A stretch of DNA of 6,620 bases, taken from a virus (taxonomy: Duplodnaviria; Heunggongvirae; Uroviricota; Caudoviricetes). Under the pieces are notes generated by a model that made no database searches, was not told the origin of the DNA, and was given only the letters and a program-made list of their open reading frames with translations. Of the stretch, positions 1 through 6,620 are shown in pieces (the first letter of the stretch is position 1; each line of letters starts with the position of its first letter). Made by a program: the position numbers and the translations under genes. The stretch lies in the IMG/VR virus record IMGVR_UViG_2671180299_000021; one strand, given 5' to 3'.

Positions 1-168
1 GTACTCAGTCTGAAAATGTTCGGGCTGGGGCTGCCGGTGATGCTGAAGGAATACGGACTGAATTACGAGAAGCGCCATACCAAACAGGGGATACAGACCA
101 ACCTGACGCTGAAAGAGGAAAGCTACGGCGACTGGCTGCCAAAATGTGACGACCCTGCAACAACCTGA
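1..168 (+). CDS. 3' end of an unidentified protein-coding gene (last 55 codons; start is upstream of the window)
   Basis: Frame 1 is open from base 1 to TGA at 166-168 (...MLKEYGLNYEKRHTKQGIQTNLTLKEESYGDWLPKCDDPATT*), followed within 20 nt by a GC hairpin plus T8 terminator. Product not recognised. Confidence 0.5.
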   Translation, partial: VLSLKMFGLGLPVMLKEYGLNYEKRHTKQGIQTNLTLKEESYGDWLPKCDDPATT

Positions 169-184
169 CCCTCATGACTCATCT

Positions 185-210
185 GACCGGCATCTGCCGG
201 TCTTTTTTTT
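185..210 (+). terminator. Rho-independent terminator (GACCGGC-atct-GCCGGTC stem followed by T8)
   Basis: Seen in sequence: 7-bp GC-rich inverted repeat at 185-191/196-202 immediately followed by eight T (203-210), placed 17 nt after the stop codon at 166-168. Confidence 0.65.
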
Positions 211-225
211 ATCCCTGAATTCCCC

Positions 226-356
226 GCAGGTGAACAATCCACTGTTCATCCTTCACCGTGTATTTACCCGTTATCACACTGAAATTAAAAGAGAAAAACG
301 AAAGGTGAACAGTGTGAACAATCAAATCAAAAAAAACTTTTTTCGCCCTGTGTGAT
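226..356. repeat. Tandem repeat unit 1 (~130 bp) with GTGAACA heptamers in both orientations and an A8-C-T6 tract
   Basis: Aligns base for base with 406-534 at an exact 180-bp offset. The 20-mer AAAGGTGAACAGTGTGAACA at 301-320 is identical at 481-500. GTGAACA at 230-236, 305-311, 314-320; inverted TGTTCAT at 244-250; A8 at 329-336 and T6 at 338-343. Confidence 0.6.
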
Positions 357-405
357 TTCAGTGCGGAGGATTAATCCCCTGCACAAGTCACACCGGCAGA
401 ATGCC

Positions 406-534
406 GGAGGTGAAGAATCGAATGTTCACCCTTCACCCATTATTCACCACCTATCACTCTGAAATAAAAGGAGAAAACAGAAAGGTGAACAGTGTGAACA
501 GTTCTTTCGAAAAAAAATTTTTTTCCTGTACGAT
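406..534. repeat. Tandem repeat unit 2 (~130 bp), diverged copy of 226-356
   Basis: Roughly 80% identical to unit 1 by eye. GTGAAGA at 410-416, TGTTCAC at 423-429, GTGAACA at 485-491 and 494-500, A8 at 510-517 and T7 at 518-524. Preceded by hairpin CCGGCA-gaa-TGCCGG (393-407), echoing the CCGGC stem of the terminator before unit 1. Confidence 0.6.
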
Positions 535-815
535 ATAGCATCAATCCAAGTAAAAATGCGTTTTCATTTCACATTAACTTACAGCCATTGGTATACGATT
601 AGGTATACGTACAAAAACTGAATTAAACAAAATCATTAAAAATCAAAGCAATACAGTATTTATTCAAACTCCGCCAGCCCACCAATCATGATTGGACGGT
701 GTAAGGACAACACCAACAAAAACAGGAAGTTAGCAGTCTCAGCAGGACACCGACCAGACGGTGAGGAGACAAAAAAGGATACGCAAAGGAGCCGCGGCTC
801 TCAAGTGTGAAAGAA

Positions 816-838
816 GCCCGCAAATTGCGGGCTTTTTT
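816..838 (+). terminator. Rho-independent terminator (GCCCGCA-aat-TGCGGGC followed by T6)
   Basis: Seen in sequence: perfect 7-bp GC-rich stem at 816-822/826-832 with a 3-nt loop, then TTTTTT at 833-838. Lies 55 nt upstream of the ATG at 894. Confidence 0.7.
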
Positions 839-893
839 ATTGATCAGTCAACAATAAACAGTAACCGAATGAGAATTTAATAAGGATATTCAT

Positions 894-1925
894 ATGGAAG
901 CTACTGTGGATTCGATTGATTTTCTGATCCGTAGTGAAGATGATTTTCTAAACTTTCTGGAAGAAATGAAAGCCCGAGAGGGGCTTGATTCTAAAGAGTT
1001 TATTTTCCCTAACGTAAAGTTTGCAGGCTGGCCATCCTTAGACATAAATGTAAAAGGAGAGCGGTATCATTCATCAATTACATCAGCAATGTTGTTTGGT
1101 ATGTCAATGCTCAACGAGGAGATACAGCGGGCGTTTGCAACCATACGATACGGATCGCAGAATCTTCAACGCTTGACTAATGAAGACAAGCAACGACTTG
1201 ATATAAATTTTAAAATTAGCGAAGGTTCTAGTGATGCGGAAGGCACCACTGACAAGATCATCAACGCAGTAACTGATTTTTTGCGAGATACTATGTCTGG
1301 ACTGAACGGCTGGCAGAAAATGCTTGTTATAATCACAATGGTTGGCGCGGCCAGCACATGTGGTTATCACTACATTTCAGAAAATGCCGTAACAGAAAGA
1401 CATGCAACTGATCGGCAGGTTGAAATTGCAAAAACCACATCCGATGGCATAAACAAAGCCATAGAAGCAACATTAGATTATAAAATCTATGGGAAATCAG
1501 CGATTAGCGATAAAGTTACTAGTCACGGACAAGCAGGTAAAAGTGCTTTAGTGAAGCAATTAGCTGCTGATCCTACTGTCGAAACCGTGACTTTAGGAAA
1601 TGAGAAACTAACACGACAAGACCTAAATACCTACAACAGCCGACAATCTGTAGATAGAGAACGTAAAGAACGAACTGATATATTTTCCATCAAAGGTGTA
1701 ACCAGAACAGGGCCAACAAATCAGGATATTAATATTAACGTTGTTAGGGTCTCTAATGACGAATGCTTCACAATCAAAGCTTCAGCTGATGTTATCACCC
1801 AAGATGAGTTGACAGCTATTGTTGACGCTTTGTCAAACAACTCTCATATTAAAATCAGTTACTTAGAGGTAATTGAAAAGGGTGCTGTTTCTATAGGTCA
1901 GTTCAACACTATTGTTTCAGAATAA
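894..1925 (+). CDS. Hypothetical protein, 343 aa (cargo gene A); mostly polar/charged with one hydrophobic segment near aa 143-158 (MLVIITMVGAASTCGY)
   Basis: Long ORF with Shine-Dalgarno AAGGA 7 nt upstream of the ATG. Visibly AT-rich relative to the phage tail genes. No catalytic or family motif recognised by eye. Confidence 0.8.
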   Translation: MEATVDSIDFLIRSEDDFLNFLEEMKAREGLDSKEFIFPNVKFAGWPSLDINVKGERYHSSITSAMLFGMSMLNEEIQRAFATIRYGSQNLQRLTNEDKQRLDINFKISEGSSDAEGTTDKIINAVTDFLRDTMSGLNGWQKMLVIITMVGAASTCGYHYISENAVTERHATDRQVEIAKTTSDGINKAIEATLDYKIYGKSAISDKVTSHGQAGKSALVKQLAADPTVETVTLGNEKLTRQDLNTYNSRQSVDRERKERTDIFSIKGVTRTGPTNQDININVVRVSNDECFTIKASADVITQDELTAIVDALSNNSHIKISYLEVIEKGAVSIGQFNTIVSE

Positions 1926-1976
1926 TCACTTAACCCCATTTATGTCGGTTGAGGTTATAAGTCACGGAGACCAGAT

Positions 1977-2321
1977 ATGTCCTTAAAGTATGCACATGAA
2001 AAATTTCATACTGCAGTACTTACTCTTGCGGGCCATGGAAGTATTCAAGAACGCTTGATTAATTCGTATGTTTTTAGCCTTGGGCATCTTAAAACAGCCG
2101 ATGATATTCCAAATGCCTTACAAAGCAGGTTCGATGAATTATGTAAGGAACTGACTAAGTTTGATGCCACTGGCGATGAGGGGCGAGTTCAAGCAACAGT
2201 ATCAAAACTTAACGATTTCGAGATCAATAAACTGATCGAAGATATTGTCAGTCTTAACGATGATATTTGCATGAAATTGGCTCTGACGGATGAGACTTAC
2301 CAAGACATACACCAAAGTTAA
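1977..2321 (+). CDS. Hypothetical small acidic protein, 114 aa (cargo gene B), co-oriented with gene A
   Basis: ORF begins 51 nt after the gene A stop, with GGAG 7 nt upstream of the ATG. Followed 28 nt downstream by a strong hairpin terminator. Product not recognised. Confidence 0.7.
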   Translation: MSLKYAHEKFHTAVLTLAGHGSIQERLINSYVFSLGHLKTADDIPNALQSRFDELCKELTKFDATGDEGRVQATVSKLNDFEINKLIEDIVSLNDDICMKLALTDETYQDIHQS

Positions 2322-2348: not shown

Positions 2349-2380
2349 AACCAGCCAGTTTTTGGCTGGTTTATTGTCTT
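2349..2380. terminator. Bidirectional intrinsic terminator between convergent genes (AACCAGCCA-gtttt-TGGCTGGTT then T-rich)
   Basis: Seen in sequence: perfect 9-bp stem at 2349-2357/2363-2371 with a T-rich tail on the + strand (TTATTGTCTT) and a T5 run 11 nt downstream on the - strand. Sits between the stop of the + gene (2321) and the stop of the - gene (2406). Confidence 0.65.
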
Positions 2381-2405: not shown

Positions 2406-2618
2406 CTATTTATGATGTAATCCGGACATCAGTTCATGGACAAGATTATCTCTTTCATTGTGTTGCAACCGTAAATGCATAGCAAAAAGGTGAGCACTAT
2501 CCTCATTCCTCTTCAAGCCATGCTGTTCAAGATACCCGAAAAAACGGCTTCTCTTATCCGCTATTTCCTGAGTCTGACGTGCAACATTTACCAAATTTTC
2601 TAGCGTTTTTCTTGGCAT
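2406..2618 (-). CDS. Hypothetical small protein, 70 aa (cargo gene C), immediately downstream of pin on the same strand
   Basis: ORF with strong Shine-Dalgarno AGGAGG 7 nt upstream of the ATG (plus-strand 2616-2618 = CAT). Product (MPRKTLENLVNVARQTQEIADKRSRFFGYLEQHGL...) not recognised. Confidence 0.65.
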   Translation of the reverse strand: MPRKTLENLVNVARQTQEIADKRSRFFGYLEQHGLKRNEDSAHLFAMHLRLQHNERDNLVHELMSGLHHK

Positions 2619-2816: not shown

Positions 2817-3371
2817 TTATTTATCTCCTGCCGGAAACCTCTGATACAAAGTCGATACGCCAACATCATAGATAATCGCAACTTTCTGGCGCGGAACTCC
2901 TGATGCAATTAATCGTCCGGCTTGTGCCCATTGTTCTGGTGTAAGTTTGGGACGACGTCCACCAATTCGTCCCTGTGCGCGAGCAGCTTCCAGTCCAGCT
3001 TTTGTTCGTTCAACAATCAGTTCTCGTTCCATTTCAGCCAGGGCCCCCATCACATGAAAGAAAAAGCGCCCCATTGGGGTACTGGTATCAATTGAATCCG
3101 TCAGACTACGAAAGTTGATGCCTCGTTCGCGCAACTCCTCCACCAGCACGACAAGATGCCGCATACTGCGCCCCAGTCGGTCCAGTTTCCAGACCACCAG
3201 CGTATCGCCTGCCGATAATGTCCTGAGCAGTTTTTTCAGTCCCGGCCTTTCGGACTTTGTACCGCTTATCTTGTCTTCAAAAATCAGCTCGCATCCTGCA
3301 CAGTTCAGCGCATTACGTTGTAGATCTGTGTTCTGGTCATTTGTTGACACACGTACATAGCCAATAAGCAT
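2817..3371 (-). CDS. pin: Serine-recombinase DNA invertase Pin (Hin/Gin/Cin/Pin family), 184 aa
   Basis: Translation MLIGYVRVSTNDQNTDLQRNAL... carries the resolvase/invertase N-terminal catalytic motif (YVRVSTxxQ, Ser10) and a C-terminal HTH region (VAIIYDVGVSTLYQRF). Length of 184 aa fits Pin. GGGAG Shine-Dalgarno sits 8 nt upstream of the ATG at 3371; the track ORF starts 12 codons earlier at 3407 with no SD. Lies next to an invertible tail-fibre segment. Confidence 0.95.
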   Translation of the reverse strand: MLIGYVRVSTNDQNTDLQRNALNCAGCELIFEDKISGTKSERPGLKKLLRTLSAGDTLVVWKLDRLGRSMRHLVVLVEELRERGINFRSLTDSIDTSTPMGRFFFHVMGALAEMERELIVERTKAGLEAARAQGRIGGRRPKLTPEQWAQAGRLIASGVPRQKVAIIYDVGVSTLYQRFPAGDK

Positions 3372-3397: not shown

Positions 3398-3910
3398 ATG
3401 ATGCCATTTGCTCGTTATTTCTGCATTTTCATAAACGTTGGTTTGGGAGAAGGTTCGGCATTACCCGTTGGTGTGCCTGTTCCGTGGCCTTCCGCCACTC
3501 CGCCAACGGGGTGGCTAAAATGTAACGGAGCAGTATTTTCTTCTGAAAAGTACCCAAATCTGGCAAAGGCTTACCCAACATTAAAATTACCAGATTTACG
3601 CGGTGAATTTATTCGTGGCTGGGATGATGGGCGCGGGATTGACTCTGGTCGTAACTTATTATCTGCACAGAATGATGCAATTCAGAATATTGTTGGTTCT
3701 TTTGGGCGTACCCAGCTTTTTAGAGACGTACTTAGTTCAGGGCCATTTAGTCAACATGGGCAAGTATTATCTACAGGTCTAAAGGAAGCCGAAATTATTG
3801 AGGGTTATGGCGCTTATAACTGGACATTCGACGCATCTCGCTCAGTTCGCACAGCATCTGAAACCCGCTCCCGTAACATCGCCTTTAATTATATTGTGAG
3901 GGCTGCATGA
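3398..3910 (+). CDS. Alternative tail-fibre C-terminal (receptor-binding) cassette, currently in the silent orientation (stfE-like); functional coding starts at the crossover site near 3434
   Basis: Translation contains the conserved tail-fibre C-terminal signature (...PTLKLPDLRGEFIRGWDDGRGIDSGRNLLSAQNDAIQNIVGSF...). The frame enters from the crossover site (NVGLGE). No independent SD; the upstream ORF portion overlaps the pin start in antisense. Confidence 0.8.
   Translation: MMPFARYFCIFINVGLGEGSALPVGVPVPWPSATPPTGWLKCNGAVFSSEKYPNLAKAYPTLKLPDLRGEFIRGWDDGRGIDSGRNLLSAQNDAIQNIVGSFGRTQLFRDVLSSGPFSQHGQVLSTGLKEAEIIEGYGAYNWTFDASRSVRTASETRSRNIAFNYIVRAA
3426..3451. other. 26-bp recombination (crossover) site, pin-proximal (pix/gix/hix-like)
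   Basis: TTTTCATAAACGTTGGTTTGGGAGAA is an inverted copy (21 of 26 positions identical) of the site at 5371-5396. Both encode N-x-G-L-G-E in the tail-fibre reading frames, and the central dinucleotide is TT here against AA at the partner. Confidence 0.7.
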
Positions 3911-4929: not shown

Positions 4930-5673
4930 TTACCGTCCAATGATTAACGCTGAGACGCTGGTATCTGAAGGAAAGGCTGCATTCAGTGGTTTGTCGACTT
5001 TGAACACAATCGTATTATTCCCCCTGACAGCGGCAAAAGAACAAACCGCCGTCGCGTATGAACCTGTAATATTACTGGATACACCACCATAAGCTGTTGT
5101 TGATACCAGAGGGATAACGCCCAGCACCTTATTAGGAAATACAAAGGGCAATGTGGCTGTGGCAATATAAGACTTATTAGAACCTGTAATGGCATAAGCA
5201 TTATCAGTCATTCCATTCATCGCCACTGGACCGCTTATACTTACAGTAACCATCTGAATGATTAGCCCGTCAGGTTGACGAATCACAAAATTTCCATTGC
5301 CACCAGTAACCGTCCAGAAAGACATATCAGGGATTTGGTTTTCCCCGTTGCCCACATTTCGTTTTGCCGCTTCTCCCAAACCAAGGTTTTCGAGAGCCGT
5401 TTTCACCGTGCCATCAGATTTGATATCGCCAAACGGATTCTTGCGGCTTAACAGCAGCGCACGAAGCGCGGTAAGCAGCTGGTCATGCCGCCCCTTCTCC
5501 AGGCTGGCACCGGATGCCTCCACCACGCTGCAGAGTTCTTCCTGCAACATGTCAAAGTAGTCATCATCCAGATCGGTGGCAGGTGTGCCGGTCTGGGGGT
5601 TACCACGGGTAAAACCGTTCTTACCCGCGCCGAACTTATCCTTCTGCGCGGTTTTCGTGTCTATACGATGCAT
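4930..5673 (-). CDS. Side tail fibre protein, 247 aa: constant N-terminal part (5397-5673) fused to the variable C-terminal cassette in the expressed orientation
   Basis: GGAG Shine-Dalgarno 6 nt upstream of the ATG. Crossover site at 5371-5396 encodes [10 protein letters not shown] at about aa 93-102. Starts 3 nt after the upstream ymfQ-like stop. Confidence 0.85.
5371..5396. other. 26-bp recombination (crossover) site inside the tail-fibre gene (constant/variable junction)
   Basis: TTCTCCCAAACCAAGGTTTTCGAGAG has imperfect dyad symmetry around a central AA and is the inverted partner of 3426-3451. Resembles published gix/hix/cix-type sites as recalled from the literature (family consensus of the type TTnnCnnAAACCnnGGTTTnnGnnAA). 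Confidence 0.7.
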
Positions 5674-5676
5674 GGA

Positions 5677-6620
<944 letters not shown>

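Follow-up and report, generated by a model that had tools for sequence, protein, structure and literature searches.

HK97 gp15 and the T4 proteins Imm and Sp are superinfection-exclusion proteins of the inner membrane that act on the incoming phage. SieA of P22 is likewise an inner-membrane protein, expressed from the prophage and acting on incoming phage (PMC10883804). In lysogens the region between cI and N, a mosaic hotspot with rexAB and bstA among its genes, is transcribed along with the repressor (PMC8585504). In this work, we examine a gene, here called A (protein WP_021530618.1), located in a 6,620-nt stretch of DNA (the window, hereafter) from the Caudoviricetes record IMGVR_UViG_2671180299_000021. 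Together with two smaller open reading frames, B and C, it occupies the cargo slot beside the serine invertase gene pinE in the remnant of an e14-like prophage. With somewhat better than even confidence, we propose that A is an autonomous single-gene prophage accessory module (moron), whose product would be an inner-membrane protein protecting the lysogen against superinfecting phages at the envelope.

The Rex system of lambda offers a parallel in position. Like rexA and rexB, the homologues of A in the cultured phages phi458 and PhiR12 lie in the cI-N slot and are co-oriented with cI, and in both cases the genes belong to the prophage and their products are membrane-associated (by prediction, for A). 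Rex, however, consists of two proteins, the soluble sensor RexA and the four-helix membrane protein RexB (PMC8585504 and general knowledge), whereas A is one protein with one membrane helix, and no PADLOC model matches it. BstA of prophage BTP1 and the gene of the DS-34 system are, like the A homologues just mentioned, single defence genes directly downstream of a prophage repressor (PMC8585504; PMC13092281). DS-34, which is made up of a CI gene and a gene for an AbiZ-like membrane protein, is listed as a validated system (PMC13092281). The DS-34 protein has 323 residues, a predicted membrane region at 184-237 and a remote similarity to AbiZ, and BstA localises to phage DNA replication sites and not to the membrane. 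Neither shows detectable sequence similarity or a shared architecture with A.

McrA shares with A the genomic slot in the same prophage type, but it is a soluble HNH type IV restriction enzyme, while A lacks a nuclease motif and is predicted to be membrane-anchored. AbiP and AbiC of Lactococcus and SNIPE (PD-lambda-1) of E. coli resemble A in being the product of one gene that joins one membrane anchor to a globular domain; AbiP binds nucleic acid and SNIPE acts at the site of genome injection. In these proteins the membrane helix is N-terminal, whereas in A it is preceded by a domain of 135 residues; A has neither a DUF4041 nor a GIY-YIG domain, and no homology was detected. The action on incoming phage known from SieA, HK97 gp15 and Imm/Sp is what we propose for A as well, although none of them is linked to A by sequence or by PHROG and A is larger, with two globular domains.

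The position of A homologues was analysed in a sample of about 60 fetched loci. In about 20 of these, a CI-type repressor gene (HTH_3 and Peptidase_S24 domains) precedes A on the same strand, with 29-145 nt between them. The cultured lambdoid coliphage phi458 has cII, CI and then an A homologue of 46% identity after a gap of 25 nt, and the cultured phages PhiR12_1 to PhiR12_5 carry their A homologue after cro and cI and before N. The placement between cI and N in phi458 and PhiR12 is the rexA-rexB position of lambda. Prophages of Acinetobacter keep a cro / cI-A arrangement at 25% identity, next to a gene with an HSDR_N domain. In many of these relatives A is probably co-transcribed with cI.

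The remaining positions are diverse. At prophage ends, A was found facing a lambda-type integrase in convergent orientation (L019, L052-L056) and, in a lambdoid prophage of Enterobacter, beside a host gene. In K. oxytoca (L061) it lies between the tail chaperone DUF6246 and the tape measure gene, in L062 and L065 it follows gpK, and in Mu-like phages of Shewanella and Zobellella it stands between Mu G and the protease (I). It also occurs in defence islands outside prophages. In Cronobacter (L003-L005, 5753-7023), a homologue of 82% identity stands directly after the trailer of ssrA, the transfer-messenger RNA (tmRNA) gene, without pin or tail genes; this has the appearance of a cargo gene left orphaned at a hotspot for integration. 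The elements upstream of it vary, being either a CP4-57-like island that ends in CbtA or a P2-like prophage. A second open reading frame of 343 codons near A in Cronobacter was considered as a relative of A and rejected as unrelated. Compared across loci, A is thus a mobile single-gene insert.

The family is large. A word-indexed search returned 76 clusters at 90% identity, and an exhaustive profile search returned no fewer than 839 clusters at 50% identity (495 with E <= 1e-10), with nearly all members between 314 and 377 residues long. The members that were named or fetched come from Enterobacterales, Acinetobacter, Shewanella, Zobellella, Oceanimonas, Pseudoalteromonas and Pseudomonas, and a Moraxella phage gave a partial match.

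An AlphaFold2 model of A built with 33 homologues reached a mean predicted local distance difference test score (pLDDT) of 74. It consists of a conserved N-terminal alpha/beta domain, a hydrophobic helix followed by a low-confidence linker, a helical hairpin and a C-terminal domain that the model places among OB folds, both by the order of the five-stranded barrel and by structural matches to OB proteins. Among the best of these matches are periplasmic or exported proteins, namely CusF/SilF, YgiW and B subunits of AB5 toxins. The position of the hydrophobic segment is kept in 62 of 63 distant homologues (best window at 120-146, median Kyte-Doolittle value 1.72) while its sequence drifts, and a second hydrophobic window above 1.4 was found in none of the 63. 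Searches of the PDB sequences, with single sequences as well as with a family profile, gave nothing beyond weak matches to membrane anchors; those of the profile were to the single-pass anchors of PBP5, MotB and PgdA. A is thus predicted to be a single-pass (bitopic) membrane protein. Since it has no signal peptide, the N-terminal domain would be cytoplasmic and the OB domain is probably periplasmic.

Family searches place A in no described group. No match above threshold was obtained for it in Pfam-A, NCBIfam or the PDB sequences, and B gave sub-threshold noise only; this agrees with the first-pass annotation, made from the sequence alone, in which neither protein could be assigned to a known family. 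The 5027 models of PADLOC-DB 2.0 matched none of A, B and C at E <= 1, and 63 members of the A family gave scattered single weak matches. Among A, B and C, the sole result from PHROGs was the placement of A in PHROG 6191, of unknown function, and in the family libraries and the phage collection C had no match. Foldseek against viral structures recovered only uncharacterised full-length look-alikes, including one DUF6575 protein. The depositors of PhiR12_1 annotated its A homologue (L074, 4899-5924) as 'T2SS GspM containing protein', and one distant family member has a weak Pfam PilO match (E = 0.005). These labels hint at a likeness of A to assembly proteins that combine a membrane helix, a coiled coil and a periplasmic domain.

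The same annotation had called the locus unrecognised. That holds as far as a described family is concerned, but the cluster of protein A is already listed by DefensePredictor, in Table S10 of that study (Science 2026, PMC13092281), where cluster_id WP_021530618.1 appears as 'Predicted novel defense gene'. The table covers 1,041 uncharacterised predicted clusters from 3,000 E. coli genomes, and the listed member WP_001272876.1 (348 residues) has a mean log-odds of 6.86, with a range of 5.2 to 9.0, and no HHblits or Foldseek match (PMC13092281). Under the accessions checked in the accessible part of that source, the A cluster was not found among the cloned and screened transcription units of Table S6 (PMC13092281). 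Three systems of the same study, DS-3, DS-31 and DS-34, were considered as homologues of A and rejected, corresponding respectively to a split PIN, an unrelated protein and an AbiZ-like protein. The accessions of A, B and C are not named in the main text of any paper found. A represents a new protein family, flagged so far by a single machine-learning screen and otherwise undescribed, whose proposed function is of a known kind.

A and B are real genes under purifying selection. The ratio of nonsynonymous to synonymous substitution rates (dN/dS) is 0.15 for B against a copy of 84% identity and 0.07 for the C-terminus of A against a diverged copy; in the comparison with the Cronobacter copy dS is saturated. 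Much of what had been read from the letters of this region was borne out by the measurements: the open reading frames of 343 and 114 codons by the call itself, the single hydrophobic segment of A (sole window at residues 143-161), the acidity of B (isoelectric point 4.9), the Shine-Dalgarno sites (AAGGA 7 nt before the start of A and GGAG 8 nt before that of B), and the AT-richness of the cargo, with a G+C content of 39% at 686-2800 against 49-50% in pin and the tail genes. The two terminators assigned to the operon fared less evenly. The upstream hairpin exists but belongs to the ssrA trailer and is not an operon feature, and the downstream hairpin folds on both strands (-15.2 kcal/mol on the plus strand and -16.2 kcal/mol on the minus strand), although the T-run of the minus strand is not adjacent to the stem, so that its bidirectional character is borne out in part only.

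The slot in which the window copy lies is itself informative. The gene order ymfQ-fibres-pinE-cargo-att is that of K-12 e14, whose cargo is mcrA, so that the assignment of A to the mcrA slot proposed beforehand is upheld. pinE-like genes were found in 2540 of 5426 E. coli genomes, and the survey of the pin-adjacent site suggested in the first-pass annotation revealed different contents between pinE and the prophage end: mcrA in K-12 and ARS-C301, a KAP-family NTPase in fS25a, a LEM-3-like GIY-YIG protein in ES5, E1739 and STS63-1-E, a HipA-family kinase with a DUF3037 protein in UTAK-5 (L086, 1769-3324), nothing in DEC5A, and elsewhere A-B-C. The pair of HipA-family kinase and DUF3037 protein has been validated as DS-6 (DefensePredictor, PMC13092281). 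In E1739, Avs2 adjoins a second copy of pinE (L085, 7010-7553). The end of e14-type prophages between pin and the attachment site (att) is confirmed as a variable cargo hotspot with conserved flanks. In the window, the A-B-C cargo has been retained in a prophage remnant of about 5.5 kb that was truncated by an insertion sequence (IS).

The case for a defence role of A is built on the rex slot, single-gene mobility, the DefensePredictor listing, conserved membrane anchoring, and purifying selection together with retention in a remnant; both the function and the stage of action are what we infer from these observations. The protein would be expressed from the prophage; its conserved N-terminal domain would lie in the cytoplasm, and a single transmembrane helix and a helical stalk would connect it to a variable OB domain that is probably periplasmic. 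From this position A may either block or sense genome entry at the inner membrane, or trigger a membrane-based abortive response. The suggestion of a defence function made from the sequence alone is favoured, as far as A is concerned, by slot context and by the machine-learning prediction, but not in the form of an A-B pair.

Several points weigh against this proposal. The searches of PADLOC and PHROGs linked A to no validated protein of defence or exclusion. The slot argument is one of guilt by association, as morons in such places also encode virulence or fitness factors, and the window copy lies between att and pin and not beside cI. DefensePredictor yields a considerable share of false positives, since about half of the transcription units that it selected for screening were not validated (PMC13092281), so that the listing in Table S10 is supportive and not proof. 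For the N-terminal domain neither a fold match nor a clearly catalytic invariant residue was found, and therefore no effector chemistry can be named; the invariant motifs of A are GWP45-47, K54/G55, D103 and E110-G111-S112. The hydrophobic segment of the window copy is only moderately hydrophobic (Kyte-Doolittle value 1.41), and the positive-inside rule gives no topology call, with 143 against 146 lysines and arginines in the flanks. Finally, the 55 nt (839-893) that separate the terminator of the ssrA trailer from the start of A gave no sigma-70-like promoter in a consensus scan. Read-through from the strong ssrA promoter is one possible source of transcription of A and B here. Taken with these points, A stands as a strong, testable and unvalidated single-gene candidate for defence or exclusion.

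A more specific version of the proposal makes the A family a new class of transmembrane anti-phage sentinel. While a phage ejects its genome, the variable periplasmic OB domain would detect one of its components, for example tape measure or ejection proteins or the DNA in transit, and a signal passing through the helix to the conserved cytoplasmic domain of novel fold would lead to an entry block or to abortive infection. We regard this version as possible, though unlikely.

A different role for the same architecture would be that of a lysogenic-conversion factor unrelated to defence, either an envelope or host-fitness factor or a membrane sensor through which a periplasmic signal would reach the prophage switch. 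The combination of a cytoplasmic domain, a helix, a stalk and an extracytoplasmic OB domain does resemble that of signalling and envelope-assembly proteins, the GspM annotation of the PhiR12 homologue and the exported proteins among the best OB matches point the same way, and a gene linked to cI might well regulate induction. Many copies of A, however, lie at a distance from cI, whether within tail or head modules, adjacent to pin or an integrase, or in defence islands outside prophages, the slots that it occupies are common to validated defence genes, and its DefensePredictor score is positive. There is thus some chance that A is such a factor, but a small one.

The first-pass annotation had described A and B as a two-gene operon, possibly a toxin with its immunity protein, and an obligate system of this kind, or one of sensor and effector, has some evidence on its side. 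The start of B, which has a Shine-Dalgarno site of its own, lies 51 nt beyond A with no terminator separating the two genes, which are probably co-transcribed. Besides being under purifying selection itself, B occurs together with A and C in all 46 of the 5426 complete E. coli genomes that carry them, and C always accompanies A-B there. The A-B pair lies at the ssrA/pin site, and also on one short contig (L072) where an SRAP gene downstream replaces C-pin. The wider distribution speaks against the pairing. A search of 5.8 billion proteins returned six clusters of B only, all close relatives. Among the sampled loci, B is found behind A copies of about 97-100% identity to that of the window and behind no others; homologues of 66-82% identity (Cronobacter, Mangrovibacter and metagenomic prophages) lack both B and C, and B is absent in Cronobacter, Mangrovibacter, Citrobacter, Enterobacter, Klebsiella and all other diverged loci. 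With phmmer at E <= 1, no remote relative of B or C was detected in any fetched locus, so that B has no relative next to A homologues at or below 82% identity. A and pin are direct neighbours in Mangrovibacter and Citrobacter, and in most loci the gene downstream of A is convergent.

Because A homologues are found at diverged loci without B, A exists stably in its absence and is a stand-alone gene that needs no antidote. B and C, judged from their distribution, are recent additions in one E. coli lineage. B is a lineage-specific addition 3' of A, perhaps a modulator or a separate small cargo gene, and not an obligatory partner or antitoxin of A. The proposed pair does not survive this comparison, and we consider an obligate two-gene system improbable.

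A service of A to the lytic cycle of the phage, in lysis timing, injection or assembly, would account for the copies found within morphogenesis modules (between tail chaperone and tape measure, after gpK and between Mu G and I). Its position is fixed in no module, however, and it is absent from most related phages; in lambdoid phages it shares the orientation of cI and runs against the early lytic operons; in the window it persists in a defective remnant unable to make particles; and it has no match to a structural or lysis family. We see little prospect for such a role. Equally doubtful is a defence variant of opposite topology, in which A would be a membrane-anchored nucleic-acid binder whose cytoplasmic OB domain acts on incoming phage DNA or RNA in the manner of AbiP or SNIPE, as it would demand the export of a 135-residue N-terminal domain without a signal peptide, A has no nuclease domain and the top OB matches are extracytoplasmic proteins.

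In the window as a whole, mobile elements meet at the tmRNA gene (table 1). The left part is the right end of a P4-like satellite, a stretch found at 98% identity in sequences from more than 300 E. coli genomes. The annotated end of ssrA in E. coli NWU_1 aligns to window position 685, and the match to K-12 begins at 662. The trailer that follows has 89% identity to the K-12 DNA between ypjF (the right end of CP4-57) and ypjA, and, measured over 662-844, the sequence is present in 4170 of the 5426 complete E. coli genomes. Its terminator hairpin has 13 bp, a folding energy of -19.3 kcal/mol and a z-score of -5.5, with a U-run after it. Weak leader-like matches from Rfam at 808-915 correspond to this terminator only; the Rfam scan found nothing in the cargo region, and a tRNA search was also negative. 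This trailer is likewise present in front of A in Cronobacter, Mangrovibacter and metagenomic prophages; the two therefore travel together. The trailer may be either phage attP DNA or host DNA, and a second copy was not seen at the far end of the NWU_1 prophage.

The prophage is of the e14-like type, here located at ssrA. The inverted repeats beyond pinE enclose a Pin-invertible segment of 1.96 kb with alternative tail-fibre tips and assembly chaperones, and an IS3-family element cuts off the rest of the prophage. A match to Rfam isrC at 6305-6427 falls within orfA of this element. A fuller copy of the prophage in NWU_1 retains ymfK/ymfT/ymfL, lysis genes and an integrase.

Table 1. Features of the window and, in the last four lines, predicted domains of protein A (residue numbers, aa).
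Feature	Position	Strand	Description
P4-like satellite, right end	1-662		tandem integration at ssrA
alpha primase-helicase, C-terminus	1-168		in the P4-like satellite end
Terminator	185-202		within the P4-like satellite end
Two 120-nt direct repeats	224-343 and 404-523		crr-like (resemble the P4 crr region), 80% identical
att core	662-685	+	copy of the ssrA (tmRNA) 3' end; junction of satellite and ssrA trailer
ssrA trailer	686-844	+	with intrinsic terminator, hairpin 810-838
A	894-1925	+	open reading frame, WP_021530618.1, 343 aa
B	1977-2321	+	open reading frame, WP_000054185.1, 114 aa, acidic, 51 nt 3' of A
Terminator hairpin	2349-2371		between convergent B and C; from scan, 10-bp stem
C	2406-2618	-	open reading frame, WP_001137529.1, 70 aa, isoelectric point 9.4, AGGAGG Shine-Dalgarno, annotated in RefSeq
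pinE	2817-3371	-	serine invertase, fixed landmark of the cargo slot; Pfam Resolvase and HTH_7; annotated pinE
pix/gix/hix-type inverted repeats	3433-3452 and 5370-5389		20 nt, 95% complementary
ymfQ (Mu gp48-like)			beyond the Pin-invertible tail-fibre segment
IS3-family element	6273-6620		transposase OrfA; directly after ymfQ
A, N-terminal alpha/beta domain	aa 1-135		conserved; AlphaFold2 model
A, hydrophobic helix	aa 139-154		in model; segment about 139-161, low-confidence linker after
A, helical hairpin	aa 169-224		AlphaFold2 model
A, C-terminal OB fold	aa about 229-340		barrel order b1-b2-b3-helix-b4-b5

These results establish a true hotspot of defence cargo at the end of e14-like prophages between pin and att, and the history of B carries the lesson that small open reading frames adjoining a candidate gene should not be presumed to be its partners. 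If A protects lysogens, it would represent a widespread single-gene family of defence or exclusion in Gammaproteobacteria, of the size given above, with an N-terminal fold unlike anything solved, and it would be a natural substitute for RexAB in lambdoid phages; the cultured phages phi458 and PhiR12 already carry a homologue in the rex slot. If the sentinel version were true, sensing from the outside in would be accomplished by one protein, used by lambdoid phages in place of RexAB.

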